This document shows, one piece after another, positions 1 through 50,426 of a stretch of DNA of 64,000 nt (positions are counted from its first letter, which is position 1; the number at the start of each line of letters is the position of its first letter). The notes under the pieces are model-generated. The model was not told the DNA's origin, made no database searches, and worked only from the letters and a program-made list of their open reading frames with translations. Source of the stretch: Eledone cirrhosa (taxonomy: Eukaryota); contig OZ024743.1 of the NCBI GenBank assembly GCA_964016885.1, forward strand, positions 43,338,001-43,402,000, in the 5' to 3' direction. A program made the translations under genes and the position numbers.

Positions 1-2325
1 TATATATATATATATATATATATATATAACGTTATTATTCATTTCAACCGTGAAGCGTACTTCTTACTATATACATTCATCAATTGACTACTACCAGGAC
101 CGTTAATTAGATGTAAATTCATAGATCCATTTCGGGATACGACGCAGCGTGAATGGGTATTTGTGTCCATTAAATACGTGTTTACTTTAGCTTGTTTAGA
201 AGATAATGATTTCATTACAAATCCTTAAATCCCGGTTTTAAATATACTCGTCGTTCAATCTAGGAGCTGAATATTTTGAATACTACAGAAACCTTCTCTC
301 AATGGTTAGGAGTGCGGAAGATATACTGGACAGGTAAATTGTCGACCTTAAATTGATGAATGGCGAAATTGATTTCAGTTGGATTTGAACACCAGAACTA
401 TTTCCTTCCAATCCACTTCTTACGTCTTTGCCTATTTGCCGCTTATTTTGAAGCATAAGGCGGAGTCAATACAATATATACTAGTCACGTAATGGTATTG
501 ATATAATCTATCACACACATCAGAGATGAGTTTTGGCCCTGTGATATTTCAGAATTTTATCGATTATACCGACTCCTCAGAAAAAAAATCATTACATTGA
601 ATTTATTTCAACAGGTGCATTCAAAGGGAAAATATCTACAACAGATATTTCCAATATAACTTGTCACAATGTATGTTCCATGTGGTTAATGGTTACTGGG
701 AATGAGTTAAAATCTCATGTAAATTAAGGCAAGTAAAAAGAAAATAACAATTCAAATCTCATGCATTTAGCGACATATTTAGCACGTTAAAACTTGTTCA
801 TGTGTTGCAATGCATTTAAGTATAATAATTGATGGTGACTTATTGAAATTTATCAATTATTGATCGCAAAATGCATGTGCTCTTAGAACGTATGCTTCAA
901 TGATTACTGGATTTGTTGGATATTATGGCAGTTTCTCGATATAGATTATTAGAAAGTGGTCAATAAATGCATTTTCTTTCATCAAATTCTAACTACTAGC
1001 AGAAACCTCTATATATGCAAATCACATAATTTCATTGACAGTGCGTTGTGATATTCATACATACATCTTCCTCTAAATGTTAAAATATTTACATTATATT
1101 ACTAGAATATGTTATGTCATCTATGCCTCTTCATAATAAATATTATGATATGATATAGTAGTTATATATACACTTTCTTTTTGAATAAAGAATAAATCTC
1201 AAATTGTGTTCCCGACATCTCAAAGATATTCTGCAAAATATTACTCTATTTATGACAAAATATGTCTGATAGTCGCCAAATATGCGATGAACAGTTAAGA
1301 CATATATGTGTGTATATGCGCGCGACTTTGTATGTAAATATAGCCTAAATATTTCGAGAATCGTAGGCTGAAATGATCAGAATAGATTACAGATAACAAT
1401 GAATAGCAACAGAGTTATTCAAGTGAAATAAAACAAAGTTATGAACAATACAGTTCATGCAAATTCTATTTTAACTTTCTTGTGCTATAATTCATGTATT
1501 GAATATACTTAATGTATCACAATATTCAATCTGTTTATACGCTCGTATTACACTCGTTAAAATCACGTATTGTTCTTGTTTTCAATTAATATATGGCAGT
1601 ACTTCTGTTAACTTCTTTGTTTAGTTCCGATGGTATTATAGTAAGTCTTCTAGATGGATTTCATTATCAAATGCTGTTTGAATATAGAGTACAGTGTATT
1701 GGGTGTTGGTAGAAGTGAAAATATGCTAGTTTAGCTTTAATAGTTAAAATCTATTTTCCTCACTTTTGGAACCAGCTCGTCTATTATGGCTGCAGTATGC
1801 CAGCAGTTTTTAAACAGTGATTTACCGAATTGCATAATATATCCAACGATTCTTACGTTCATATTACGTCCGAAGGAAAAATATCATTGAATTATAATTG
1901 AATGCAATGTGGTTTGACAGGAAGTATACATTTTCATCGAGACCCCAGCGGTTGGTTGTTAATGTCATCCACGTCTAAATACTCAGACAATGAAAGATAA
2001 CAGAATTACATATTGCCAAATAAGAAGTGTTCATACGCTCAGCAGGTTGTGTGCCATCATCAAATCGTCGGAGAATTAGGGACAGACTGGATAATGACTT
2101 TTCCTCTTTCTCTCATTGAATAGAATTATTAAGGAAATATTATCGTTTCGAAGTTGTTAATTAAAATTGATGTACATTTATTATAGTTGGATACAATTAA
2201 ATTGTGTTTAAATATGATACAGCAATTTGTCCACGAAAGAGATGGGCTGGATACATATTCTGATATTGTTATGTATATTTATATATATGTATACTTTATT
2301 CACACACAGAAAATTATGTATATAT

Positions 2326-2506: not shown

Positions 2507-5500
2507 AATGAAGAACAGAAAGCACCGAGACACTGGGAGCAAGAAAACGTAGGTAATGTGTAAGTTTTTCAGGAACGAGACCTGCTGGCATGGAGAGACA
2601 AGGATGGGCTGCAGATTCGCCCACTCCAGGTCTCAAACGAACTAAGCCCATGCTACTCGCGCAACATGCCCCAGCCAAAGCCGAAACAAGACGCTCCAGA
2701 AGTATGCTGATGTCATGCGTGCCGCGCCAACAAGGAGAAGGCACGCACATGCAGACGAGATACAGATGGCAGTAGCAGAGCAGAAACATGTTTTAGTCAT
2801 GGCACAGAAGTTTGTGGGACAGCTGGCCTGGCTGCATCGTTTCCAGAGCCAGGGTAACCCACACCAGCACTCGAGACCACCACAGCTAAGGGACCCAGAG
2901 TGGCCGCCGCTGACACCAGGCCAGGTGTCATACCGACAGCTATTACTGGCCCCCCAAACGTCACACCAGTTCTGCTGCTGAATGTCAGAGGCCTGGTGAA
3001 ATTCAGTAACATGAATAAAATATCCTACCTGGGAGACTTAGCCATAAGCATTATGCATAGCACCAACCAAGCATTATGCATAGCACCAATCAAGCATTAT
3101 GCATAGCACCAACCGAAACGCACCTGACAAGCAGTATAGCAGACGCAGAAATACATATACCGAAATATACTGTATTTCGTTCGGACAGGAAGGAGAGAAC
3201 TCATGGTGGGGTTGCTCTGTATATCCGTGAAGATGTCACACCAATTGTACTGTTGACACATTCAAACTCAGTTTGTGACACACTGATAGTACATATGAAG
3301 CAACTACAGACAGTTATATGTGTCACATATCGGCCGCCCGATGCCCCCAGTAATGAGGGTCAAATTTGAGGATAGCCTCAGTAGGATTGAAGAGGTCCAT
3401 GACAAACTGAACCATGGTCTCAACATTCTACTGCTGGGAAACTCAAACCTGCCAAAGGTCAAATGGCCTGAGGGCCACTTCCTCTCTGGAATGACGTCAA
3501 TAGAACAGAGACAGACGGAATCCCTGCTGGCCCTCATACACAGGCTGTTCATGGAACAAGCAATACTCCTCCCAACAATATGCAAAAATGACCTGGACCT
3601 CTGTTTTACAAACAACGAAGTGCTCGTGTACAATGTAAAGGTGACACCAACAATACTCTCGGATCATAACTTAGTAAAACTAATGATATGTGGTCCGAGA
3701 GAACCAAGAGAGACAAAACCATCAAGAAGCACCGGGACGTTATCCAGCCTTATCTTCTACAAGGCTAACTGGCAAAAGAGCAAGAGAGAAATCCGGAAGC
3801 AAACATGGAGCGAAAACACCGCCACACAAGACACCAATACAATTTCAACACTTTATGACAACTATACACACTATAATCAAAAAGTTTGTCCCGGAGAAAA
3901 AGGCAAACAGACATAAAAATCTTATTCCCAGAGATAGGAAAATCCTTATGAGACGTAGAACCAAGCTCTCAATGCAATTGAATGCACAACAAGAAAATAA
4001 AAACAAGAAGGAATCCTATTTGAAACGTGCACTACTCGGCACCGAGATTGAACTCAAGCTTTCCCATGAAAATGAAAGGGCAAAGAAAGAAAGCAGGGCC
4101 ATAGAATATATTAAAACAAACCGTAAGACCTTCTTTAAATTTGCAAATGAAACTGCCTCGGTAAACTGCAAGATTGGACCACTCTTCCATACAGACGATT
4201 CATTAACAGAGAATCCCCAAGATATATGTGAAATACTGAACGAACAGTACAAAAGTGTGTTCACGTGTCCTCTGAGACAAATGCAAATAACAAAGCCCGA
4301 GTTCTTTATGCCACAACACTACATGAAGAAATGGCGACCATCAACCACATAGACATAACGGAGGAGGATGGGGTGTACGCCATAGTTGAAATTAGAACAG
4401 ACTCAGCTGCTGGACCTGATGGATTCCCAGCAGTATTCTTAAAAACATGTAAGCGGGCCTTAGCAACTCGATTGAAGATGGTCTTCAGAAGCTTCTTGGA
4501 TAGCGGTATACTACCCAGGGAACTGAAAGAAGGCACAATATGCTCTATCTATAAAGGAGGGAGCATAGCGGAGGCAAAAAACTATAGGCCAGTCTCTCTG
4601 ACGTCGCATATCAGTAACGTCATGGAGCGAATCGTCAGGAAGAAACTGAACACTTTCCTCGAGGAAAATGACTGCCTGACTAGCACGCAGCATGGCTTCC
4701 GCCCAGGAAGAAGCTGCCTTACGCTGCTGCTACATCACTACGACTGGGTACTGAAACAACGCTAGACAGCTCACATGTGGACGTGATATATCTTGACTTT
4801 GAGAAGGCCTTTAACAAGTTCGAACACGGATTAATATGTCACAATCTACAGGGACTCGGCATAACTGGAAAAGTAGGTGAGTGGCTGCATGACTTCTTAA
4901 AAGACAGAAGCCAGACAGTCGCAGCAAACGGGGCCCTCACAAAGGAAACACCATTAACAGGTGGGGTGCCCCAAGGCACCACTACTGTTTTTGTGGATCT
5001 CTGTTATACATACAACAACATCCCTCACTAGCTATGCTGATGACACACACGTAGCAAAGGCAATCAAAAACCCGGCTGACGCTGCACTTTTACAACAAGA
5101 TCTCGATGCCATATACAAATGGGCGGAAGAAAACAACATGCAGTTCAATGCTGGCAAATTCCAAGCCCTACAATACAAAGCTGCAAACACAAATACAGTA
5201 CAACACAGTTACGCAGGACCGGGAGGGACCGATATCCCCGTGTTAAAATCGATACGAGACCTGGGTATAGACATGAGCGATGATGCATCTTTTTCCTCAC
5301 ACATCATGAAAGTAGCGACAATGTGCAGACGACACGCTGGCTGGATCTTGGGGACTTTCCGGACAAGAGACCGAGACACCATGTTGACACTATGGAATAC
5401 ATTTGTCCTAAGCCACCTGGACTATTGCTCCCAGTTGTGGTCACCACATAGTGTCAAACTAACCACGGAGCTCGAGGCAATCCAGCGAAGCTACACCAAG

Positions 5501-6003
5501 AGGATTGCCACCATAAAGGAGATAAGTTACTGGCAGAGGATAAAAGAACTGAACCTCTTGGAACCAAGACGGGAGAGATACGCAGTGATCTACATGTGGA
5601 AAATCCTGGATAGACTATCATCAAACTTTGGCATTGGGAGCTGGACCAACCGTCGAACAGGACGTCACTGTGTGGTGCCAAAGATCCCATCTTCCACATC
5701 TAGAATAAGGAGCAGATATTGCAATATCCTGGGATTCAAGGCCCCTCAACTCTTCAACAAGCTGCCGAGGGATCTGAGAGATTTGCATGGTGTGAAGGTG
5801 GATGTCTTCAAGAAACATCTCGACACATTGCTATCCAGGATGCCGGATGAGCCCACAGCAAGGCACGAGAGAAACCTAAGGGCTGCAGCAAACTCTCTCT
5901 TAAACCAGTGGCCAACCAATACAGGCTGGAGATAAAATGTGTAGCAGCAAGGGCAGTGCCCCAGCATGGCCTCAACCGGATGGCTAGAATAGGTAAAAGA
6001 GAA
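2507..6003 (+). mobile_element. Degenerate CR1/L2-group non-LTR retrotransposon (APE + RT)
   Basis: Frameshifted ORFs with APE motifs (TETHL, FRSDR..GGVALYIR, SDHN), RT motifs (GPDGFP, NYRPVSLTS, QHGFRPGRSC, YLDFEKAF, GVPQG, YADD) and LDYCSQLWSP; ends in (TA)n. Confidence 0.9.
3046..3113 (+). repeat. 3x 23-nt tandem duplication inside LINE endonuclease region
   Basis: aagcattatgcatagcaccaa(c/t)c repeated three times, shifting the frame. Confidence 0.85.
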
Positions 6004-6578: not shown

Positions 6579-6747
6579 ATAACGAAGGAAATGTGGTAAG
6601 GAATCAGGTGGACCATAACGCACCAAAGTACTCGATACTTGAGGTAGTAGAGTGGGTAATAGGAACCAGTAAGACCCCGACAGCTGAGCTCAAGCTGTTT
6701 CGACGGCGGCTAATTCTGGACAATATATATATATATATATAATTCTG

Positions 6748-6751
<4 letters not shown>
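6579..6751 (-). mobile_element. Solo terminal fragment of PLE family A in (TA)n
   Basis: Near-identical to 13746-13886 (aacgaaggaaatgtggtaagg...aattctggac); starts at the +100 end point. Confidence 0.9.
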
Positions 6752-6821: not shown

Positions 6822-8452
6822 TCTGCCACCCCAACGCCGTCGCCGTTTTTCTCAAGGTACGTGGACGATATCCTCATCCAGACAGGGCGAACAGAATATA
6901 TGAGACGTTCAACAACACGGACGAGAACATTGACTTCAGTGTTGAACACTCCAACGAAGACGGGTCACTTGCCCTCCTCGACTTCCGAATCAACATCACG
7001 GAACAAGGAAGGATCCACTGCAACTCTACTGAAAGGCAGCCTGCAGGGACCTGTTCGTTCACTACAACTCCGCCCTCCCTAACAGTGCCAAAAGAAGATT
7101 AATCACGAACGAGATCGCGCGAATCAAAAACAGATGCAGCGATCCCGCAAGTGGTGTCACTCATACCAAGCGATTCCTCGAGGTGCTGGAGACGAACGGG
7201 TACCCTACCTCGCTCACAGACAGAGTAGGAGACACCAGACACAAGAGACAAAGAGGCACCCAAGGCAAGTGCTTCCTTAAAATGCCACACCGGGCGAGAA
7301 TACCACCAACGCTATCCGCAAGGCTATACGGAGGGAGGGCCTCGACATCCACCTGGCCCACTCGGGCCCCTCCCTGCGAAGATGCCTCTCCAGGAAATCC
7401 GGGAAATCAACTGACGGGTGCTCCCTCAGAGAGTGCCCGATACGTTATGAGAACTGTTGCCTACGCACATACGTCGTGTATAAGATAGAATGTGACAGGT
7501 GCAACCAATATTATATAGGTAGCACAATCCGACCTTTGCACATCCGGATCAAGGAACACACTAAAACCAGTGCCTCGTCTTTCCGGAAACACATAGACAA
7601 ATGCGGAAACAAAGACGGAAGGGCCGTTGTCACAATTCTAGCGACTGAAAGAAACGTCGGCACGTTAAGTATCAAGCAATCACTTTTTATCAAACGCCTG
7701 GAACCGCAAATAAACAATCGATCCGAGAGAAGCCAAATGAGGTGGTTGGTTTAAGTTAACAAACGATGCAGCAACGCACGAACACACACACACAATCGAG
7801 ACAACTACACACGCACCCGCACACACACACACAGTAGCATTCCACCATAGGCAAGATACTACACTGCCAATACAGAGGAACAAGGCAACAACACACGCTC
7901 ACACACACACTCTCAAGCGAGACAACAACACACGCACACACACACTGTAACATTTAACAAACAGGCAGAGAATGGACTGACAGCTACCGCCACACCACTC
8001 CCACAATTGAAAGAACTACTTCGGCCGCTGACCTCTGCCCGACCGAACCCATTTCACGCGCAAGCGCGCGCTGCTGAATACCTCAGATATTCAAAACAAC
8101 AAACAGCGGAGGACGCGTTTCGCACCTTTCCGATAGACCTTTCCCCCACCTCGGAAAAAAACCCCAGTTGATGGAAGTGAATCCGAAATATATAGGGACA
8201 ATTAAATCTCTCCCAAGGTTGTTATAATCTCTCATGTTGTTATTTTAATTTTATCCTTAATACTCTTTCCTTCATTCCTTTACACGTCTTATACACGCAA
8301 CGCATCTCAACGTACACCCACTTACATCTCTCTCTCCACCACCAGATCTTATTACCCGGAGATTTAGCCATTGGCATTGTCGAGGCTTCCAAACGACTTA
8401 AAGATATTTACCTATTATTCCACAATGCTTCAAGCAAACTTCAATACTCTCT
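6822..8452 (+). mobile_element. 5'-truncated, frameshifted Penelope-like element (distinct lineage)
   Basis: FSRYVDDIL RT motif; GIY-YIG VVYKIECDRCNQYYIGSTIRPLHIRIKEH; CA-rich 3' UTR; degenerate HHR-like motif near 8163-8198; (TA)n on both sides. Confidence 0.85.
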
Positions 8453-10093: not shown

Positions 10094-10135
<42 letters not shown>

Positions 10136-10140
<5 letters not shown>

Positions 10141-10251
10141 AACCAGTAAGACCCCGGGGTCTTACTGGTTCCTATTACCCACTCTACTACCTCAAGTATT
10201 GAGTACTTTGGTGCGTTATGGTCCACCTGGTTCCTTACCACATTTCCTTCG

Positions 10252-10255
<4 letters not shown>
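10136..10255. mobile_element. Minimal head-to-head family A insertion (20-nt + 100-nt arms)
   Basis: ataggaaccagtaagacccc|ggggtcttactggttcctat...ttccttcgttat with axis 10155/10156, flanked by (TA)n. Confidence 0.9.
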
Positions 10256-10296
<41 letters not shown>

Positions 10297-10306
10297 AACC
10301 AGTAAG

Positions 10307-10400
10307 ACCCCGACAGCTGAGCTCAAGCCGTTTCGACGGCTAATTCTGGACTAAATGAACATTTATCCTGGTATTTAAATAGCCGATCTTCTCAAGGGGT
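10307..10400 (-). ncRNA. Type I hammerhead ribozyme (family A), U3-A8 variant
   Basis: ACCCC-TTGAGAA-GATCGGCTA..TAGCCGTC-GAA-ACGGCT tgagctc AGCTGT-C-GGGGT; predicted cut between 10312 and 10311. Confidence 0.85.
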
Positions 10401-11501
10401 AATTCCATATATGGTCAAAGTGATTGTCAAAAATCAGTAGTAATTCTGTGGTTGCAAATTAGTAGGGCAGATGGTGGCTAAACCTGCCAGTAGGAGAAAG
10501 AGGGGAGGGGGTGGAGTAGACCCAATCAAGCGTTGGTAGTGCCAGCTACAGCTGGGCATGAGGTCAAAGAAGATACAGGGGAGGGGGAGGGGGAGGAAGT
10601 CGGAACAGTAGGTAGAACAATGGGGGGTAAAAATAGGAAAGAAAAAATACTGAGAGTGAAGAAAAGCAAATAAGTGTAAAGAAAAAATTAAATTCTACGA
10701 CCTAGGTGTCAGGCTATTGTTAGGCGAGAATAAAATAAAGAAAGAAAGAAAGAAAGAAGTAAATAAATAAATAAATAAATAAATAAGGAAATAAGTAAAA
10801 GAACTAGGTGGGACGAATTAGGCAAGGACCCTTTTAAGAGGTATAAGTACGTAAATGATACGGTGACTGGTCAACAAAAGGGGCCAAAATACTAAAGAGA
10901 CTACCACGAAATAAACAATAAAGGTTTCCATCCCGGGCCAGCAACGACCCAGTGCAGCAAAGTGAACTTGTACGACATAATAATTCTGAGTCCCGGGAAA
11001 AATATATACTAATGCTAACTCTAAAAGATCTAAAACAAGCTACATGAAAGTTCGTACGAAATAAAGGTAGAATACGGAGAAATAAGTTCAGAATCCACCC
11101 CGCCCAGAAGAAAAGCGAAGCAAGAAATACTGAAACGAAAAAATAAGGCATAAGTGCCACTAAGAAATATAGAGGGCACAGAGAATAGTGGGAGCGGTCG
11201 GAAAAGGGGGGCAAGTATCCGGGGTCTAAGCCAACTGCTATAAAGGGCGGAGTCCGCCAAATCTATCAAAGACTAGGGGAGGGGGAGTGGGGGTACTAAG
11301 GCTACATGGGGCCAAAGGGCAGCCTCGGGTGGGCGAGAAAAGACGCCGACAAAGGAGAAGAGCTGGGGTAGAAGGACAAAGGAGAGAGGGGGGAAGGAAA
11401 TAAAGGATGCGATAAAAGAATACAAAGAAGATCTTACGTCTTCCTTGGCAAGCAGGGGTTACCCATTGCAAAATCGGCAACTGGGGTGTTATAGCCCTAG
11501 T

Positions 11502-13655
11502 CTACCCCCCCGGGTCATTATGGGGTTTGAGGGCGAGGTAAGTCCTACGCAATCTATGTTTACATGCAGTAACCAGTTCATCTTTCTTGTTTAGGAGTTG
11601 GTCCGTCGAAAACAGCATTTGTAAAGTTTCCTCCGAGCATAAATTGCACGGACGGCGTCCTCCCGTGTAAGAATTGGCTCTGGACAGTAATCTCCAAGTG
11701 AGATCATAGGTGATGTTGTTGTCCTTGAGGTCCCATATGTGGCCCGAAAGTGTAGTGGCGTGACGCCGGGCCGGGTTTCGGAAGGTATGTCTATGTTGGT
11801 ATAGCCGGGTCTTGAAGTCACATGCGGTAAGTCCTATATAGGCTTTGTTGGAGGTATCCGTCCTCACGTTGCACTGGTAGATCACATTACGGTCTCTGCA
11901 TCTATTGTCGAGTGGGCAAATAGATCTATCCGGGCAGTTACACCTCCTGGTCGGTTCTCCACTGCTATTTAGGTTATTTCTGCCATCGGGGTTGAGTTTT
12001 TTGTTGTTAGAGGAGACGATGTTTTGTGCGAAGTTTGGTGTAGTGCTGTAAGAGAGTTTGATGGTATTTTTGTTAATTATGTTGTGGTAGCGGTGTTGTA
12101 ATGGGAAGTGTTTTTCAATGAGCCTAAAGAATAGTTTCCCGATGGGAGTAGTCACCTCTGCGTTGTGGGGAGGATTGAACCATGTTACATTGCGTGAGCG
12201 GCGGTGTCTCCTGCTGGTTCCGCTAATGGGATCTGGACAGTAGGATATTTCCTCCCGGAAACCACTCCGCTTGAGGGCCTGGTTGTAATAAGGCGCATGT
12301 TCATCGAATATCCGCTCATTAGCTGACAAACGGGATATGCGGAGGGAGATGTTTTTGACCAGGTTGTTTGTGATGTTCCTAGGATGGTTTGATCGGCGGT
12401 GGATGTAGTGCAGATTGTCATTAGGTTTCCTGTATGGGTAGTACAGGTCGTTTTCGAGGTCGAGGGTTACGTCCAGGAAGTTTACTCGGGTCAGGGACGT
12501 TTGTAGGGTTATTTTAAATCCCCAGTCGCGGAAGAATCTGATTAATTGTTTCCGGACCCGATCTGTACTACTGGGGTTGTACCCTTTAAGGGTAAGGAGC
12601 CCATCATCACGGTACAATCCACCACCGAATGCAGGAAACATATCAGTGAGTTTGGCTATTAGGAATAATCCTATAAGATCAGTGACCTCCGCCGAATCCG
12701 TGGCGCCCATGCTGACGTCGAAGGGTGAGTCGGGAGCTCTTTTTATCCATTTAGAGTCGTCAAAGAGTAAGACTGTCTTCCTGGCGTGGGGGATGATTTT
12801 TCTTTCCTGGTCGGTGATGGGCACGAGTGTTTCGGCGAAGTCCAAGGCGGCAGTAAGTAGCGGTAAGGTGATTGAAGCATAGTAGCTCTCTATGTCGAAC
12901 TGTATGAATTTAGTTTCTCGTTTATCCTCCATATTGCTGAACCAGGAGATTACTTCCTGGGTGTTGATCCATAGGCTAAGTCGGGTGTGTTGCTTGACTT
13001 TTGGTATCACGCGGTCTAGGATTTTTTTGCTGATTCTCCCTATGTCGGACTTCGTTGGGTTAATAAGCCTGATGGAGGGTTTACGGTCAAAATCGGATTT
13101 ATGGTCCTTCAGTGTGAAGTATGGTGTCCGTGGGTCTAGAGGTTCCGTGCGGTCGGCGACCCCGAGGCTGGAGGTGATTTGTTGTCCATCTCGATTTATG
13201 TCCTCGATGCAAGAGTGGTTGGCCTTTTTATAGGTGGAGTTTAGGCTGCTCCTGATCAGTGTGTGGTATCTGTCAGGGTTGACAAAGTATAGGTTCCCAG
13301 TTTTATCCGAATGCACCATGATGTCATTTGTGTTATCATACTCTGTTAAGTTGCTACGGAGTTTTTGTAGGAATCGGTTGTGTCTGGGTTTAAATTTAAT
13401 ATTCTTGACCAGTTGGAAGAGGTCATTCTCGAAGGGTGCGAGCAAGGGGTTCAGGGGCGGAGATTTGTAGGTAATAAATCCGAATCTCTCCTTGGTGCCG
13501 AAGTCTTGGTTGTCGCAATATCTGTCATAGAAAAAAGTTCTCCATCTAAGTCTTTTCGCAAATAGATCAATTTTTTGCGTGAGCATCCGAAGGTAAAGTT
13601 TTTTCGGTGGGATTGGGATGTTCTTGGTAGAGAAGTCAATGTTGTGTTTTCGCAT
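11502..13655 (-). CDS. Intact PLE polyprotein, RT + GIY-YIG endonuclease (717 aa, Naiad-like)
   Basis: ATG at 13655 (MRKHNIDFSTKNIPIP); HSDKT, QFDIESYY, MGA..SAEV.DL.G, YRDDG, NFLDVTL, WFNPP, CNC..C..C, VIYQC..AYIGLT, CNLC, CKH; no stops. Confidence 0.93.
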   Translation of the reverse strand: MRKHNIDFSTKNIPIPPKKLYLRMLTQKIDLFAKRLRWRTFFYDRYCDNQDFGTKERFGFITYKSPPLNPLLAPFENDLFQLVKNIKFKPRHNRFLQKLRSNLTEYDNTNDIMVHSDKTGNLYFVNPDRYHTLIRSSLNSTYKKANHSCIEDINRDGQQITSSLGVADRTEPLDPRTPYFTLKDHKSDFDRKPSIRLINPTKSDIGRISKKILDRVIPKVKQHTRLSLWINTQEVISWFSNMEDKRETKFIQFDIESYYASITLPLLTAALDFAETLVPITDQERKIIPHARKTVLLFDDSKWIKRAPDSPFDVSMGATDSAEVTDLIGLFLIAKLTDMFPAFGGGLYRDDGLLTLKGYNPSSTDRVRKQLIRFFRDWGFKITLQTSLTRVNFLDVTLDLENDLYYPYRKPNDNLHYIHRRSNHPRNITNNLVKNISLRISRLSANERIFDEHAPYYNQALKRSGFREEISYCPDPISGTSRRHRRSRNVTWFNPPHNAEVTTPIGKLFFRLIEKHFPLQHRYHNIINKNTIKLSYSTTPNFAQNIVSSNNKKLNPDGRNNLNSSGEPTRRCNCPDRSICPLDNRCRDRNVIYQCNVRTDTSNKAYIGLTACDFKTRLYQHRHTFRNPARRHATTLSGHIWDLKDNNITYDLTWRLLSRANSYTGGRRPCNLCSEETLQMLFSTDQLLNKKDELVTACKHRLRRTYLALKPHNDPGG

Positions 13656-13840
13656 GGTGCGGGTGAAATGAATTGAGCTTAGCGGAAAAGTCTGGATACG
13701 GCGTGGTAGGGTCGGAAAGTGCTCTACTACGGGAGTAGGAGCTAGATAACGAAGGAAATGTGGTAAGGAACCAGGTGGACCATAACGCACCAAAGTACTC
13801 AATACTTGAGGTAGTAGAGTGGGTAATAGGAACCAGTAAG

Positions 13841-13934
13841 ACCCCGACAGCTGAGCTCAAGCCGTTTCGACGGCTAATTCTGGACTAAATGAACATTTAT
13901 CCTGGTATTTAAATAGCCGATCTTCTCAAGGGGT
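13841..13934 (-). ncRNA. Type I hammerhead ribozyme (family A, upstream pLTR)
   Basis: Identical to 10307-10400; predicted cleavage lies about 190 nt upstream of the ORF ATG. Confidence 0.85.
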
Positions 13935-15036
13935 AATTCCATATATGGTCAAAGTGATTGTCAAAAATCAGTAGTAATTCTGTGGTTGCAAATTAGTAGG
14001 GGAGATGGTGGCTAAACCTGCCAGTAGGAGAAAGAGGGGAGGGGGTGGAGTAGACCCAATCAAGCGTTGGTAGTGCCAGCTACAGCTGGGCATGAGGTCA
14101 AAGAAGATACAGGGGAGGGGGAGGGGGAGGAAGTCGGAACGGTAGGTAGAACAATGGGGGGTAAAAATAGGAAAGAAAAAATACTGAGAGTGAAGAAAAG
14201 CAAATAAGTGTAAAGAAAAAATTAAATTCTACGACCTAGGTGTCAGGCTATTGTTAGGCGAGAATAAAATAAAGAAAGAAAGAAAGAAAGAAGTAAATAA
14301 ATAAATAAATAAATAAATAAGGAAATAAGTAAAAGAACTAGGTGGGACGAATTAGGCAAGGACCCTTTTAAGAGGTATAAGTACGTAAATGATACGGTGA
14401 CTGGTCAACAAAAGGGGCCAAAATACTAAAGAGACTACCACGAAATAAACAATAAAGGTTTCCATCCCGGGCCAGCAACGACCCAGTGCAGCAAAGTGAA
14501 CTTGTACGACATAATAATTCTGAGTCCCGGGAAAAATATATACTAATGCTAACTCTAAAAGATCTAAAACAAGCTACATGAAAGTTCGTACGAAATAAAG
14601 GTAGAATACGGAGAAATAAGTTCAGAATCCACCCCGCCCAGAAGAAAAGCGAAGCAAGAAATACTGAAACGAAAAAATAAGGCATAAGTGCCACTAAGAA
14701 ATATAGAGGGCACAGAGAATAGTGGGAGCGGTCGGAAAAGGGGGGCAAGTATCCGGGGTCTAAGCCAACTGCTATAAAGGGCGGAGTCCGCCAAATCTAT
14801 CAAAGACTAGGGGAGGGGGGAGTGGGGGTACTAAGGCTACATGGGGCCAAAGGGCAGCCTCGGGTGGGCGAGAAAAGACGCCGACAAAGGAGAAGAGCTG
14901 GGGTAGAAGGACAAAGGAGAGAGGGGGGAAGGAAATAAAGGATGCGATAAAAGAATACAAAGAAGATCTTACGTCTTCCTTGGCAAGCAGGGGTTACCCA
15001 TTGCAAAATCGGCAACTGGGGTGTTATAGCCCTAGT

Positions 15037-15473
15037 CTACCCCCCCGGGTCATTATGGGGTTTGAGGGCGAGGTAAGTCCTACGCAATCTATGTTTACAT
15101 GCAGTAACCAGTTCATCTTTCTTGTTTAGGAGTTGGTCCGTCGAAAACAGCATTTGTAAAGTTTCCTCCGAGCATAAATTGCACGGACGGCGTCCTCCCG
15201 TGTAAGAATTGGCTCTGGACAGTAATCTCCAAGTGAGATCATAGGTGATGTTGTTGTCCTTGAGGTCCCATATGTGGCCCGAAAGTGTAGTGGCGTGACG
15301 CCGGGCCGGGTTTCGGAAGGTATGTCTATGTTGGTATAGCCGGGTCTTGAAGTCACATGCGGTAAGTCCTATATAGGCTTTGTTGGAGGTATCCGTCCTC
15401 ACGTTGCACTGGTAGATCACATTACGGTCTCTGCATCTATTGTCGAGTGGGCAAATAGATCTATCCGGGCAGT
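15037..15473 (-). pseudogene. GIY-YIG-only 3' fragment of family A ORF (partial second unit)
   Basis: Identical translation to the C-terminus of 11502-13655. Confidence 0.9.
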
Positions 15474-15488
15474 TTACGGTCAAAATCG

Positions 15489-17081
15489 GATTTTGACCGT
15501 AAACCCTCCATCAGGCTTATTAACCCAACGAAGTCCGACATAGGGAGAATCAGCAAAAAAATCCTAGACCGCGTGATACCAAAAGTCAAGCAACACACCC
15601 GACTTAGCCTATGGATCAACACCCAGGAAGTAATCTCCTGGTTCAGCAATATGGAGGATAAACGAGAAACTAAATTCATACAGTTCGACATAGAGAGCTA
15701 CTATGCTTCAATCACCTTACCGCTACTTACTGCCGCCTTGGACTTCGCCGAAACACTCGTGCCCATCACCGACCAGGAAAGAAAAATCATCCTCCACGCC
15801 AGGAAGACAGTCTTACTCTTTGACGACTCTAAATGGATAAAAAGAGCTCCCGACTCACCCTTCGACGTCAGCATGGGCGCCACGGATTCGGCGGAGGTCA
15901 CTGATCTTATAGGATTATTCCTAATAGCCAAACTCACTGATATGTTTCCTGCATTCGGTGGTGGATTGTACCGTGATGATGGGCTCCTTACCCTTAAAGG
16001 GTACAACCCCAGTAGTACAGATCGGGTCCGGAAACAATTAATCAGATTCTTCCGCGACTGGGGATTTAAAATAACCCTACAAACGTCCCTGACCCGAGTA
16101 AACTTCCTGGACGTAACCCTCGACCTCGAAAACGACCTGTACTACCCATACAGGAAACCTAATGACAATCTGCACTACATCCACCGCCGATCAAACCATC
16201 CTAGGAACATCACAAACAACCTGGTCAAAAACATCTCCCTCCGCATATCCCGTTTGTCAGCTAATGAGCGGATATTCGATGAACATGCGCCTTATTACAA
16301 CCAGGCCCTCAAGCGGAGTGGTTTCCGGGAGGAAATATCCTACTGTCCAGATCCCATTAGCGGAACCAGCAGGAGACACCGCCGCTCACGCAATGTAACA
16401 TGGTTCAATCCTCCCCACAACGCAGAGGTGACTACTCCCATCGGGAAACTATTCTTTAGGCTCATTGAAAAACACTTCCCATTACAACACCGCTACCACA
16501 ACATAATTAACAAAAATACCATCAAACTCTCTTACAGCACTACACCAAACTTCGCACAAAACATCGTCTCCTCTAACAACAAAAAACTCAACCCCGATGG
16601 CTGAAATAACCTAAATAGCAGTGGAGAACCGACCAGGAGGTGTAACTGCCCAGATAGATCTATTTGCCCACTCGACAATAGATGCAGAGACCGTAATGTG
16701 ATCTACCAGTGCAACGTGAGGACGGATACCTCCAACAAAGCCTATATAGGACTTACCGCATGTGACTTCAAGACCCGGCTATACCAACATAGACATACCT
16801 TCCGAAACCCGGCCCGGCGTCACGCCACTACACTTTCGGGCCACATATTGGACCTCAAGGACAACAACATCACCTATGATCTCACTTGGAGATTACTGTC
16901 CAGAGCCAATTCTTACACGGGAGGATGCCGTCCGTGCAATTTATGCTCGGAGGAAACTTTACAAATGCTGTTTTCGACGGACCAACTCCTAAACAAGAAA
17001 GATGAACTGGTCACTGCATGTAAACATAGATTGCGTAGGACTTACCTCGCCCTCAAACCCCATAATGACCCGGGGGGGTAG
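15489..17081 (+). pseudogene. 5'-truncated family A ORF with nonsense codon
   Basis: Same protein as 11502-13655; AGA>TGA at 16602-16604. Confidence 0.9.
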
Positions 17082-18183
17082 ACTAGGGCTATAACACCCC
17101 AGTTGCCGATTTTGCAATGGGTAACCCCTGCTTGCCAAGGAAGACGTAAGATCTTCTTTGTATTCTTTTATCGCATCCTTTATTTCCTTCCCCCCTCTCT
17201 CCTTTGTCCTTCTACCCCAGCTCTTCTCCTTTGTCGGCGTCTTTTCTCGCCCACCCGAGGCTGCCCTTTGGCCCCATGTAGCCTTAGTACCCCCACTCCC
17301 CCCTCCCCTAGTCTTTGATAGATTTGGCGGACTCCGCCCTTTATAGCAGTTGGCTTAGACCCCGGATACTTGCCCCCCTTTTCCGACCGCTCCCACTATT
17401 CTCTGTGCCCTCTATATTTCTTAGTGGCACTTATGCCTTATTTTTTCGTTTCAGTATTTCTTGCTTCGCTTTTCTTCTGGGCGGGGTGGATTCTGAACTT
17501 ATTTCTCCGTATTCTACCTTTATTTCGTACGAACTTTCATGTAGCTTGTTTTAGATCTTTTAGAGTTAGCATTAGTATATATTTTTCCCGGGACTCAGAA
17601 TTATTATGTCGTACAAGTTCACTTTGCTGCACTGGGTCGTTGCTGGCCCGGGATGGAAACCTTTATTGTTTATTTCGTGGTAGTCTCTTTAGTATTTTGG
17701 CCCCTTTTGTTGACCAGTCACCGTATCATTTACGTACTTATACCTCTTAAAAGGGTCCTTGCCTAATTCGTCCCACCTAGTTCTTTTACTTATTTCCTTA
17801 TTTATTTATTTATTTATTTATTTACTTCTTTCTTTCTTTCTTTCTTTATTTTATTCTTGCCTAACAATAGCCTGACACCTAGGTCGTAGAATTTAATTTT
17901 TTCTTTACACTTATTTGCTTTTCTTCACTCTCAGTATTTTTTCTTTCCTATTTTTACCCCCCATTGTTCTACCTACCGTTCCGACTTCCTCCCCCTCCCC
18001 CTCCCCTGTATCTTCTTTGACCTCATGCCCAGCTGTAGCTGGCACTACCAACGCTTGATTGGGTCTACTCCACCCCCTCCCCTCTTTCTCCTACTGGCAG
18101 GTTTAGCCACCATCTCCCCTACTAATTTGCAACCACAGAATTACTACTGATTTTTGACAATCACTTTGACCATATATGGAATT

Positions 18184-18277
18184 ACCCCTTGAGAAGATCG
18201 GCTATTTAAATACCAGGATAAATGTTCATTTAGTCCAGAATTAGCCGTCGAAACGGCTTGAGCTCAGCTGTCGGGGT
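18184..18277 (+). ncRNA. Type I hammerhead ribozyme (family A, inverted arm)
   Basis: Same fold; GUC cleavage predicted after 18272. Confidence 0.85.
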
Positions 18278-18369
18278 CTTACTGGTTCCTATTACCCACT
18301 CTACTACCTCAAGTATTGAGTACTTTGGTGCGTTATGGTCCACCTGGTTCCTTACCACATTTCCTTCGT

Positions 18370-18425
<56 letters not shown>

Positions 18426-33809: not shown

Positions 33810-35798
33810 TTATCCGTTAGGGTATAACGTGGGGCTGTAATACAGGAAAGTTTTGTGCAATTTATGTTTACAAGCCGAAATTGCCTCAGATTTTTTGTTT
33901 AAGATGTGGTCTTTGGCGTAGAGTATTTCCAGGGCCTCAGCGGCGCAGAGGTCACATGGTCTTTTATTTCCGCTATACGATCTAGCCCTAGCTATGATCT
34001 CCCAGTGTAACTTATATTGGGTGTGGTTGTCTTTTAGACTCCAGATATAAGCTGAAAGTGACGTCACATTCCTTCTTAGAGGGTAACGAAAAGAATGGGT
34101 ATGCATGTAAAGACGCTGCTTGAAACTATTGGCGGTTAACCCTATGTAGTCCCTACGGGACGTGGGTGTTACAACCTTACAATTGTAGACAATGTTACTA
34201 GAGAGGCATTTCCCGGATAGGCAATCAGCCTGATTCCTACAATTACAGTTAGTACTAACTACAGGGTTGCACGTGTTCCTACGGCTAGGTAGTTTAGCTA
34301 AATTTGAAGCTGTGATGTTATGTGCAAGGTTAGGAGTCGTAGAGTAAGGAATTGTAATAGTATTTCTATTAAAAATGTTACTATATTTATGTGTAGGGGG
34401 AAAATGCTTCGAAATAAGGGAAAGAAAGATCTTAGCTAATGGTGTGGCCACCTCCATATTATATGGTGGGTTAAACCAACAAATGCGACGGGATCTATTT
34501 CTTATAGGTCTATTTTCGTACTCTGTATATGCTACCTTATCGACAAATCCACTTCGAGCAACAGCTTCATTGTAATAAGTGGAATGGTTGTTGAAAATGC
34601 GCTCGTTGGTGGAAAGACGGGAAAGCCTCAACGAAACGTTTCTTACCAGGTTCCTGGTTATGCTGGCAGGATGGTTGGAATGCTTACTTATGTAATTAAG
34701 CGTATCATTCGGCTTTCTATACGGGTAATACAACCCATTCAATAAATTGAGGGTAACGTCGAGGTAATTAACGACCGAGAGATTGGCCTCAACCTGTATA
34801 GAGAGGTTGAAGCCTTTAAAGAAGGCTGTGAGTTCTTTTCTGAACCTGTCGCAAGCACGAGGTCCGCACTTAGTCATGGTCAAATGACCATCGTCACGGT
34901 ACAAACCACTGCCCGCGTTGGGGAATTCGTCCTTGATAGAGAAAAGAAGGAAAAGCCCAATAAGATCAGTAACCTCCGCAGAGTCACTGGCGCCCATACT
35001 CTCGTCGAATGGGGTACTATTGGATTTTTTAATCCAAATAGAGTCGTCGAAATTAATCACCGACTTTCGGGCATTAAGGATGACATCAACTTCAAAATCC
35101 TTAACCACTGTGAGTGTTTTAGCGAAATTGATAGCTCTAAGGAGAAGTGGTAAAGTGATGGAGGAGTAGTAATTGTTGATGTCGAATTGGATAAAACGGC
35201 AATGTTCCTTGTTACATATGCCGTTGAACCAATCAATCACCGCGAAAGAATTGTTCCACAGTGCGAGAGGGGCCAAACTTCTAATTTCAGGTATAATTCT
35301 ATCAAGAATCGTTTTACTAAGTCTACCTAAATCGGACTTCGTAGGGTTAATAAGCTGAATAGAGGGGTTGTTCGGAAAATTGGATTTGTGATCCTTCAGG
35401 GTAAAGTGGGGAGAGATAGGGTCCAGAGGTTCGGTCCGGTCCAGGATGTTGAGATCAGATGTGATTTTAAACCCAGCATCGTTGATTTCATTGATGACGC
35501 ACCGATTAGTTTTACGGTAATCCTTAGTTACAGCATTATGTAGTAGTTGATGGTAAGTACTGCGCTCCACTTGATATAGGTTGCCAGTTTTGTCGGAATG
35601 GACGTGCACGGCGTTAGAATCCTTAATAGAACGAATTCTATTCTTCAAGTCTTGCTGGAAGGAATTGCTCCTATTCCGAAATTTGATATTCCGAATGAGT
35701 TCCAAGACATAATTTTCGAAGGGTAGCAATGCTGGGTTCCACGGAGGGTTATTATAGGTTTTAAATCCAAATTTATCCTGTTTGTTGTCTGCTTTTCG
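33810..35798 (-). pseudogene. Family B RT-GIY-YIG ORF, duplicated 5'-truncated copy
   Basis: Same translation as 36244-38265 from RKADNKQ on; upstream part of the ORF-track call is 3' UTR sequence. Confidence 0.85.
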
Positions 35799-36243: not shown

Positions 36244-38268
36244 TTATCCGTTAGGGTATAACGTGGGGCTGTAATACAGGAAAGTTTTGTGCAATTTATG
36301 TTTACAAGCCGAAATTGCCTCAGATTTTTTGTTTAAGATGTGGTCTTTGGCGTAGAGTATTTCCAGGGCCTCAGCGGCGCAGAGGTCACATGGTCTTTTA
36401 TTTCCGCTATACGATCTAGCCCTAGCTATGATCTCCCAGTGTAACTTATATTGGGTGTGGTTGTCTTTTAGACTCCAGATATAAGCTGAAAGTGACGTCA
36501 CATTCCTTCTTAGAGGGTAACGAAAAGAATGGGTATGCATGTAAAGACGCTGCTTGAAACTATTGGCGGTTAACCCTATGTAGTCCCTACGGGACGTGGG
36601 TGTTACAACCTTACAATTGTAGACAATGTTACTAGAGAGGCATTTCCCGGATAGGCAATCAGCCTGATTCCTACAATTACAGTTAGTACTAACTACAGGG
36701 TTGCACGTGTTCCTACGGCTAGGTAGTTTAGCTAAATTTGAAGCTGTGATGTTATGTGCAAGGTTAGGAGTCGTAGAGTAAGGAATTGTAATAGTATTTC
36801 TATTAAAAATGTTACTATATTTATGTGTAGGGGGAAAATGCTTCGAAATAAGGGAAAGAAAGATCTTAGCTAATGGTGTGGCCACCTCCATATTATATGG
36901 TGGGTTAAACCAACAAATGCGACGGGATCTATTTCTTATAGGTCTATTTTCGTACTCTGTATATGCTACCTTATCGACAAATCCACTTCGAGCAACAGCT
37001 TCATTGTAATAAGTGGAATGGTTGTTGAAAATGCGCTCGTTGGTGGAAAGACGGGAAAGCCTCAACGAAACGTTTCTTACCAGGTTCCTGGTTATGCTGG
37101 CAGGATGGTTGGAATGCTTACTTATGTAATTAAGCGTATCATTCGGCTTTCTATACGGGTAATACAACCCATTCAATAAATTGAGGGTAACGTCGAGGTA
37201 ATTAACGACCGAGAGATTGGCCTCAACCTGTATAGAGAGGTTGAAGCCTTTAAAGAAGGCTGTGAGTTCTTTTCTGAACCTGTCGCAAGCACGAGGTCCG
37301 CACTTAGTCATGGTCAAATGACCATCGTCACGGTACAAACCACTGCCCGCGTTGGGGAATTCGTCCTTGATAGAGAAAAGAAGGAAAAGCCCAATAAGAT
37401 CAGTAACCTCCGCAGAGTCACTGGCGCCCATACTCTCGTCGAATGGGGTACTATTGGATTTTTTAATCCAAATAGAGTCGTCGAAATTAATCACCGACTT
37501 TCGGGCATTAAGGATGACATCAACTTCAAAATCCTTAACCACTGTGAGTGTTTTAGCGAAATTGATAGCTCTAAGGAGAAGTGGTAAAGTGATGGAGGAG
37601 TAGTAATTGTTGATGTCGAATTGGATAAAACGGCAATGTTCCTTGTTACATATGCCGTTGAACCAATCAATCACCGCGAAAGAATTGTTCCACAGTGCGA
37701 GAGGGGCCAAACTTCTAATTTCAGGTATAATTCTATCAAGAATCGTTTTACTAAGTCTACCTAAATCGGACTTCGTAGGGTTAATAAGCTGAATAGAGGG
37801 GTTGTTCGGAAAATTGGATTTGTGATCCTTCAGGGTAAAGTGGGGAGAGATAGGGTCCAGAGGTTCGGTCCGGTCCAGGATGTTGAGATCAGATGTGATT
37901 TTAAACCCAGCATCGTTGATTTCATTGATGACGCACCGATTAGTTTTACGGTAATCCTTAGTTACAGCATTATGTAGTAGTTGATGGTAAGTACTGCGCT
38001 CCACTTGATATAGGTTGCCAGTTTTGTCGGAATGGACGTGCACGGCGTTAGAATCCTTAATAGAACGAATTCTATTCTTCAAGTCTTGCTGGAAGGAATT
38101 GCTCCTATTCCGAAATTTGATATTCCGAATGAGTTCCAAGACATAATTTTCGAAGGGTAGCAATGCTGGGTTCCACGGAGGGTTATTATAGGTTTTAAAT
38201 CCAAATTTATCCTGTTTGTTGTCTGCTTTTCGCGGATTATCGAAATAAAAGGCACGCCAACGCAACCT
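36244..38268 (-). CDS. Family B PLE RT + GIY-YIG ORF (open, lacks roughly the first 35 aa)
   Basis: [59 protein letters not shown]; collinear with family A. Confidence 0.88.
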
Positions 38269-39125: not shown

Positions 39126-40200
39126 ATAGGAGAAAGTATGACCCCGACGGCAGAGCTCTGGACTAAAGTAAGAGTTTTTTGTCTGGTAAATAAATAGCTG
39201 AACTTTTCAAGGGGTACTTCCTTATATGGGAAGATTGTAGTTGTCAAGAGGATTGGTCAAAATTTGTAGCAGACACAGAAAAGTCTATCATGGCAGTGGG
39301 TGCGGGTGGGGATGGCTGAACTTGCCTCTAGAACGATACGGATGTGCGTAGAGCCGGTGAAGCGTTTAAATTGAAATCTACACGGCAAATTCTAAAAAAG
39401 TAGGCTAGTGGAGGTTGGCGAAAAAAGGTTTCTTTAGAAAGTGGAGGAGGGACGTTATAGAAATTCTAAATCAAATGTGATTAGTGGACAATGAAAAATA
39501 TAATAAAAGAGAATATAATAAAAAAAATGAGAGAAAGATGCATCAGAATGTAAGATTGGGAAGTGAGACGTGAAATAAAACAAAAACTAAGGAGTCTAAC
39601 ACAGCTGCTATATTTAGTGGGTGCTGCTTAATCGGCCAAAGCTAGAGAATGACTTGCTAGATGAGAATTATTGAAAATTTAGAATTAAAAATTGATACCA
39701 GAATTCTGGGGTCTACCACAGCTGCTATGAATAGTTAGTATAGCGTAATCGGCGAATGCTATCTGTAAGTTACAGGGGTGGCGGTAATGAGGCTAACAGG
39801 CCCGATGGGCTGCCTCGGGGTAGGCGAAAGGGGGAAAAAAACAAAGAAACGAACGAGGAAGAAATTTGATGGTAGAAAGAAGTGATAGGAGGAGACAAAG
39901 GGAACGAGAAAACTTAAAGGAAAAAGAAAGAGGTACATATACCTACATAAGTAGGGATTTTCCCAATCTTATTCGGCAAGTGGGGTGTTTCAGCCCTAGT
40001 CTACCCACTGGGATTGTTAGGGGTTTGGCGGCGAGGTAAGTCTTCCCCAATCTGTGTTTGCATGCGGTTACCAGTCCAGAAACGGCTTGAGCTCTGCCGT
40101 CGGGTTCATACTTTCTCCTATTACCCATTCTTCTACCCTAAGTATTGAGTACTCTGGTGCGTTATGGTCCATCTGGTCCCTTACCACAAATCATTAGTTA
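39126..40200 (-). mobile_element. Subfamily A2 PLE: ORF end, 3' UTR and inverted tail
   Basis: LVTACKHRLGKTYLAAKP; partly deleted HHR with core TTGAAAA; inverted arm 40073-40200 homologous to family A tail. Confidence 0.85.
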
Positions 40201-40221
40201 TGTATATATATATATATATAT

Positions 40222-50177: not shown

Positions 50178-50355
50178 ATAGGAAAAAGTATAACCCAGAC
50201 GGCAGAGCTCAAGCCGTTTCGACGGCTATTAGCCGTCGAAATGGCTTGAGCTCTGCCGTCGAGGTCATACTTTTTCCTATTCCCACTCTACTACCCTAAG
50301 TATTGAGTAATCTGGTGCGTTATGGTCCATATGGTTCCTTACCACAATTTCTTTG

Positions 50356-50359
<4 letters not shown>
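50178..50359. mobile_element. A2-like head-to-head mini-insertion
   Basis: aggaaaaag...gccgtttcgacggcta-t-tagccgtcgaaatggc...atttctttgtta; arms end at the +20 and +100 equivalents. Confidence 0.85.

Positions 50360-50426
<67 letters not shown>

Follow-up and report, generated by a model that had tools for sequence, protein, structure and literature searches.

Short two-armed insertions of a Hydra-clade Penelope-like element as a probable genomic record of hammerhead cleavage

Introduction

Hammerhead ribozymes (HHRs) lie in the pLTRs of Cercyon and other Penelope-like elements (PLEs), where the available part of PMC4209133 (Cervera and de la Pena 2014) describes them as minimal, dimer-type motifs, with a covariant U3-A8 core in the Cercyon elements. 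The same authors propose cleavage followed by ligation to circles as the source of more-than-unit copies, and they state in vivo evidence to be absent. In the Hydra clade of PLEs, a C-terminal GIY-YIG endonuclease (EN) is found together with RW(K/R) and DKT motifs, a CxCX5C linker, CxxC and CxH, as well as a (TA)n target, a pLTR hammerhead, partial tandems, an inverted 5'-truncated copy and a tail (PMC8557442). That source calls HHR function in PLEs unclear, and a breakpoint map was not found in the part of it available to us.

The mechanistic side is best described for Poseidon_Ac, in which both strands of an AT-rich target are nicked and extended, each target strand of the PAc in vitro products carrying its own antisense cDNA, and in which the tail is set by a pair of internal start sites located downstream of the hammerhead (PMC11167929). 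Cut RNA is dispensable in vitro for the Poseidon element (PMC11167929). Palindromic PLE junctions with head-to-head inverted pLTRs, a tail and an Inr-like motif in the pLTR have been explained by self-priming on an antisense template (PMC3846280; Arkhipova et al. 2013). Outside the PLEs, the R2 element with an HDV-like 5' ribozyme records its ribozyme-made RNA 5' end, with untemplated bases, in genomic 5' junctions (PMC3414825). A preprint on retrozyme origin (bioRxiv 10.64898/2026.07.22.740005) yielded no breakpoint analysis in its available part.

The window analysed here, 64,000 nucleotides of contig OZ024743.1 from Eledone cirrhosa, holds a PLE that shares with the Hydra clade all the traits listed above, although its unit of 3.5 kb exceeds the generally <3 kb of that clade, its tail is 80 nt against 30-40, and its hammerhead has a U3/A8 core, unlike the Hydra clade as described in the available part of PMC8557442. 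We number its sequence from the predicted cut, +1 being 18273, the first base past the GTC at 18270-18272. Poseidon_Ac uses the same start sites for both strands, whereas nearly every insertion here pairs one arm starting at +20 with one starting at +100; and where uncut RNA is dominant in Poseidon_Ac, without reads at the cut site in the part of the report available, about 4% of arms end there in the present element. The hammerhead lies in the pLTR, as in Cercyon, but with a long stem II and a stem III of 6-7 bp. Inverted pLTRs, tail and Inr-like motif recur as well; on our data, two sense-templated cDNAs, each with its own primer, are a better fit than self-priming. R2 primes at the RNA 3' end and has the cut end as its regular productive end (PMC3414825), whereas here the cut end is minor and apparently abortive, and the fixed primers lie 20 and 100 nt behind it.

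The focal insertion

The insertion at 10136-10255 is the reverse complement of +1..+20 fused to +1..+100, 120 bases in total. By comparison within the window, 10136-10155 (ATAGGAACCAGTAAGACCCC) and 10156-10175 are perfect reverse complements of each other, and 100/100 bases of 10156-10255 agree with 18273-18372, the 100 bases just 3' of the GTC in the element copy at 15483-18372. A previous sequence-only reading had described this composition, had placed +1 directly after the GUC of the hammerhead and had reported nothing upstream of the cut on either arm; the exact 20-base inverse match together with the full identity of the long arm, the GTC at 18270-18272 and the sequence of both arms bear it out on all three points. 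Both outer ends merge with (TA)n via a shared TAT, and both cDNA 3' ends read ...GACCCC, for which mutual pairing is impossible.

The short arm is likely a cDNA for which the top target strand served as primer at +20, and the long arm likely one for which the bottom strand did so at +100. The long arm exceeds the short one by 80 nt, the equivalent of the PLE 'tail'.

Table 1. Features of the focal insertion and of the neighbouring element copy (positions in the window)
Feature	Position	Strand	Basis
(TA)n target, left part	10098..10135	.	sequence
Short arm, element +1..+20 inverted	10136..10155	-	sequence match
Blunt +1/+1 junction CCCC/GGGG, no spacer	10155..10156	.	sequence
Long arm, element +1..+100	10156..10255	+	sequence match
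(TA)n target, right part, common to next insertion	10256..10291	.	sequence
Arm of the adjacent insertion, with its end at +20: full 3534-nt unit + 5'-truncated tandem copy, ~1.5 units	10292..15474	-	sequence comparison
Intact 718-aa ORF, RT (YRDD) + C-terminal GIY-YIG	11502..13655	-	motifs
Inverted partner arm of 10292-15474, ending at +100	15483..18372	+	sequence comparison
Predicted type I hammerhead	18184..18277	+	MFE fold + core motifs
Inr-like TTAGTC, A at 18232 = -41	18230..18235	+	run-off pile-up

The parent element and its predicted hammerhead

Within the arm at 10292-15474, position 13845 is +1 and the full unit occupies 10292-13845 on the minus strand. Its 718-aa ORF carries an RWK-like RWR at 37, DKT at 117, CNCPDRSIC at 572 (the CxCx5C linker), CNLC at 670 (CxxC) and CKH at 698 (CxH), in addition to YRDD and VIY..YIG, so that by motif RT shares a single ORF with a C-terminal GIY-YIG endonuclease, as in EN+ PLEs. 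A motif search of this ORF for CX2-5CxxC found none, and a Pfam scan of it returned 0 matches. Partial tandem pLTRs, an inverted 5'-truncated copy and a tail are seen in 10292-18372 and in other fetched loci, and the (TA)n target, also a Hydra-clade trait, is present at 15/15 fetched loci. Since the ORF motifs agree with those listed in the available part of PMC8557442, the element is, as assigned by motifs, a Hydra-clade Penelope-like retrotransposon. The Naiad clade, suggested by an N-terminal motif, was rejected, as the EN is C-terminal and the Hydra motifs fit.

The whole stretch 10292-18372 appears as a single long two-armed insertion, with a 1.5-unit arm ending at +20 and an inverted 2.9-kb arm ending at +100; it holds the intact young ORF, and its copies are 99.6-99.8% alike.

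In the predicted hammerhead, stem I is formed by ACCCC (18184-88) and GGGGU (18273-77), the core U3-U4-G5-A6-G7-A8-A9 lies at 18189-95 and GAAA at 18250-53 around a long stem II, and stem III, with a GAGCUC loop, leads to the GUC at 18270-72 and a predicted cut after 18272. The MFE fold of 18183-18278 gives type I topology, with UUGAGAA, GAA and, between stems III and I, C 18272 left unpaired, and with stem III closing at -2, adjoining +1. Three stems thus surround a core with G5, A6, A9, G12-A13-A14 and an NUH triplet, in the U3/A8 form, and this core is intact in most of the read-through copies listed. The fold is no more stable than shuffled sequences (z 0.05 and -1.0), and an Rfam scan at gathering thresholds gave 0 matches. 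The earlier description of a variant HHR holds in so far as the fold yields a type I topology with U3/A8, but this core is already a known PLE variant in the available part of PMC4209133.

The second landmark, at -41, sits inside the hammerhead in the region of stem II, and its TTAGTC is replaced by TCAGTC in a subfamily with 354 copies or more. We take both forms to match the initiator (Inr) consensus. Judging from the junctions, -41 is the main run-off point and likely a capped transcription start; the 5'-end pile-up and the C bias behind this assignment are both read from DNA, part of the C/G signal being ambiguous.

Where the arms end

Genome-wide, 5836 arms begin with a TA-repeat followed by +20..+1, a search pattern that loses about a quarter of arms by its last letter. 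Breakpoints were parsed for 99 of the first 100 of these in position order: 6 end at +1, 1 at -3, 12 at -20..-31, 63 at -34..-46 (mode -41) and 17 further upstream. After removal of 2 duplicates, 5/97 stop at +1 as against 1/97 over the whole of -1..-19 (p=1.8e-6). A non-G follows +1 in 244 arms, the first 100 rows of which comprise 66 true breaks and 34 mutated read-throughs, 2 rows being duplicates. Another 123 arms continue with G and then non-A; a hand tally of their first 100 rows gives 43 exact junctions, 6 joins at +2, 4 G-led spacers, 2 downstream partners, 32 mutated copies, 4 deletions and 2 others, while in 7 CCG microhomology connects a +1/-1 arm with an upstream partner. The genome-wide estimate is that ~229 of the 5836 arms (~4%) stop at +1, whereas stops at -1 account for at most 13 of the same 100 hand-tallied rows of the 123. 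The main stop is -41 (18232), where 4298 arms end with non-A next. The spike at +1 is real and one base wide, but it is a minor class: the breakpoint excess expected by the sequence-only reading is there, in the shadow of the 63/99 arms that stop at -34..-46. Most arms run on beyond the cut site to a stop at -41, so the dominant template is one that is uncut at its 5' end.

As anticipated, the junction itself recurs: a 26-base exact match is found at 60 loci genome-wide, against 0 for a reversed-pattern control, and in 15/15 of those fetched the arms are exactly 20 + 100 within (TA)n. A further 33 loci have the +1/+1 junction with a one-base spacer. The flanks are unrelated among the fetched exact-junction loci and four alleles at +35..38 are present among 23 +1/+1 loci, which together argue against one amplified master. 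In an older subfamily, 18 loci have spacers of 0-4 bases at the junction; 12 of the 15 fetched are plain 20+100 stubs, and in 7 of the 18 one of the two arms extends to -2 or -3. Short junctions of a second class were also noticed, in which both arms are joined at the palindromic TGAGCTCA of loop III by microhomology (for example G000:C1:93348206-93348266).

Coupling of the two arms

Of 48 partnered loci whose +20 arm ends at +1, 28 have the partner's inner end at +1 as well, 18 have it downstream and 2 have it upstream, whereas a +20 arm that passes +1 has its partner upstream of +1 in 72/80 (against 2/48, p=6.5e-24). No adjacent partner was found by script for 18 of the 66 arms stopping at +1, one of which (L227) has a +1 partner by eye. 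Long arms have long partners in 12/13 cases and short arms in 0/67 (p=2e-13), the partners of the 17 long arms coming from a separate listing with one (L087) set by eye. A +1 arm is paired with a -46..-1 arm in 1/67 cases. The allele at -4 is the same in both arms in 45/47, an agreement that subfamily timing could also produce. We infer that both target strands were served by one RNA, or by two RNAs of one kind.

No +20/+20 pair was seen among the fetched loci, and both arms reach past +24 in 3/97 loci. Inner ends can differ greatly between the arms of one insertion (-2624 against -177 in L198), and either arm may be the longer. In L1 twin priming, two target strands prime on one RNA to give an inversion, with priming at the RNA 3' end. 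The insertions described here likewise show two antisense cDNAs on opposite target strands with independent inner ends, the target-site duplication being unreadable inside (TA)n. The earlier proposals of two separately primed cDNAs and of priming near the RNA 5' end are both supported, with +20 and +100 as the fixed sites. The idea of internal rather than 3'-tail priming also stands for this element, but it is not new, two-site internal priming and two-strand extension having been published for Poseidon (PMC11167929).

End chemistry and re-priming

From RT biochemistry, addition of C is expected when a cap is copied, and addition of A upon run-off at an uncapped end. One-base spacers at +1/+1 junctions are A/T in 28 and C/G in 5 of all 33 loci, while those at -41/-41, in a hand tally of the first 50 of 659 loci, are C/G in 19/21 and A/T in 2/21, a contrast of 28:5 against 2:19 (p=6e-8); single C/G spacers at -41 are ambiguous, given that the TCAGTC subfamily could supply a templated G. 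The remaining -41/-41 junctions in those first 50 comprise 9 without spacer, 14 of the form C..G (C added to each cDNA), 0 of the form G..C and 6 others. The first base past -41 is C in 57, G in 37 and T in 6 of 100 rows (hand tally), and past +1 it is A in 33, T in 23 and C in 10 of 66 true breaks, G being excluded by the search pattern. The A/T spacers at +1 fit the expectation for a cut end without a cap and the C/G spacers at -41 that for a capped start, and run-off at the RNA 5' end, which the sequence-only reading had put forward, gains support from the untemplated A in the +1 spacers.

Some arms record more than one round of copying. L067 runs from +20 to +1, is re-primed at +208 and stops again at +1; L208 has three segments all ending at +1, one of them beginning at +368; and L206 and L207 show repeated stops near -41. 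Re-priming at +208 and +368 with stops at +1 suggests that the cut RNA extended into the ORF. At these loci (L206 at 170-827, L207, L208 and L067) the RNA 5' region is repeated head to tail in small arrays (-44..+213 twice; +1..+368), as would be expected if each run-off were followed by re-priming some hundreds of bases further in, and such arrays could seed retrozyme-like tandem units.

Alternative explanations

It is conceivable, but in our judgement unlikely, that the RNA is uncut and RT is held up on it, either by the folded hammerhead core or at the stem III base, just past the G run, a common fold or bound protein stalling both arms alike. Stem III does close at -2, adjoining +1, and other junctions gather at hairpin tips such as GAGCTC and TTCGAA; nevertheless, ~95% of arms get past the stem III hairpin, and the -1/-2 ends that stalling predicts are more than tenfold rarer than +1. 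RNA from -41 contains the same stem III, so that stalling would predict weaker coupling than the single pairing of a +1 arm with a -46..-1 arm in 67, and exact +1 stops are repeated after re-priming in L067 and L208. This last observation, together with the A-rich spacers at +1, also weighs against a second possibility that we regard as very improbable, namely that insertions or intermediates were at first longer (-41/-41), were cut back through resection or palindrome-centre collapse, and came to rest at +1 because of a sequence preference. Within the family, both trimming and joining by microhomology are frequent (gaps of -1 to -6; CCG joins in 7/100), and the CCG joins of a +1/-1 arm to an upstream partner look like trimmed longer arms. 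Yet the CCCC/CCCC ends lack microhomology, trimming from -41 should populate -1..-19, where 1/97 is observed, and 18/66 of the +1 arms are without an adjacent partner found by script.

A similarly slim chance attaches to one cDNA folding back and self-priming its own copy, with the turn at the cut or at a stalled end. This is the published reading of PLE junction palindromes (PMC3846280), and the focal bottom strand does read antisense +100..+1 followed by sense +1..+20. Spacers of 0-1 base at 93 loci, however, leave no snap-back loop, the inner ends often differ by hundreds to thousands of bases (as in L198) with either arm being potentially the long one, and CG/CWG spacers show C added on both ends. 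Least credible of all is that the 120-bp unit is an amplified non-autonomous element, a segmental duplicate or an assembly fold-back artefact; the arm lengths are identical in 15/15 and the palindrome at the focal locus is unspanned by the short-read (Logan) contigs examined, but the spacers vary, four subfamily alleles occur, flanks are unrelated and unmirrored, arms can be unequal, and a second subfamily has the same stubs.

A possible mechanism

Judging from the junctions, we consider it quite probable that both target strands prime on one RNA, which would be hammerhead-cut in a minority of events, and the focal 120-base insertion is likely a DNA record of such a cut in living cells. In the mechanism that we propose, the endonuclease would nick both (TA)n strands, and the two 3' ends would prime at +20 and +100. 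RT would copy to the RNA 5' end, running off an uncapped end at +1 with 0-3 untemplated bases, mostly A, and the two cDNA ends would be joined by end-joining or an RT jump. Each arm would be a separate cDNA, both being copied off a single RNA molecule or off two RNAs of the same kind. Three template classes might be used: capped RNA from -41, inside the hammerhead (~75/97 arms); hammerhead-cut RNA from +1 (~4-5% of arms), which would yield the 120-bp stub; and an uncut downstream pLTR, a multimer or a religated circle, which would give the long arms (17/97). As the -41 transcript lacks the 5' half of the ribozyme, it should be unable to cut its own 5' end in cis, and a read-through or tandem transcript holding the whole ribozyme may be the source of the cut RNA. 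Linear cut RNA would then be mostly a dead end yielding 120-bp stubs. That +1 is minor here agrees with the dispensability of cut RNA and the lack of cut-site reads in the available Poseidon data (PMC11167929).

All 3 of 3 more-than-unit arms pass -41 on their second lap, which fits circles or multimers without separating these. A template jump bridging the cut from the +1 end to the -1 end is unsupported, since W-led inserts in read-through arms number 7 at the cut site and 16 at a control site. A cap scar at -42 was likewise missing (97 G and 3 C in 100 rows), and an LTR-like strong-stop transfer via the -41..-1 redundancy was rejected as the main route on this ground and on the pairing of long arms with long partners (12/13 against 0/67). 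With untemplated bases showing no excess at the cut site and no cap scar at -42, nothing ties the cut RNA to productive long copies.

Significance

Inverted pLTRs, tail and (TA)n targeting (PMC8557442), as well as internal two-site priming and both-strand extension (PMC11167929), are already published. A literature search covering titles and abstract openings of openly accessible papers turned up no genomic trace of PLE hammerhead cleavage such as a junction spike at the cut, and no PLE cap signature, coupled arms or twin priming. What we offer is a new reading of a known PLE architecture: ~4% of events likely preserve hammerhead cleavage in genomic form, and a larger set likely preserves the capped start. 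This matters because the role of PLE hammerheads and the origin of inverted pLTRs are open questions in the literature as available to us (PMC4209133; PMC8557442; PMC11167929).

With modest confidence, we lean towards a broader interpretation in which the short insertions, thousands in number, would be a natural 5'-end map of the PLE RNP, two cDNAs being made at strand-assigned +20 and +100 on one RNA and the junction reporting whether that RNA was capped at -41, at a promoter lying within the ribozyme, cut by the ribozyme at +1 or continuous (uncut or circularised). If so, they would provide genomic evidence of PLE hammerhead cutting in the germline, twin priming would explain inverted pLTRs and tails in general, and cut-then-ligated circles would be the source of more-than-unit copies. 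In this family independent events number in the thousands and their end chemistry can be read base by base; the cut and start sites are both named, and the window contributes a young, intact ORF, which together make cleavage, cap copying and one-RNA twin priming each directly testable. It also offers a method, as the 5' ends of element RNA become readable from genomic junctions.

Other copies in the window

A +100 arm at 6579-6750 stops at -40 and is partnerless; it is followed by TA and a 12-base repeat of its -30..-41 end, resembling a templated repair insert. Copies of the older subfamily, ~85% identical and with the same +20/+100 ends, lie at 39128-39229, 39973-40204 and 50178-50362. Duplicated pieces of a more distant Hydra-like RT, with 75% DNA identity to the element unit, are found at 34948-35441 and 37382-37875 on the minus strand, within a tandem duplication. 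On the plus strand, 7033-7754 holds a frameshifted GIY-YIG end from another Penelope-type element, and 3299-5935 decayed LINE-like ORFs that are endonuclease- and RT-like by eye.
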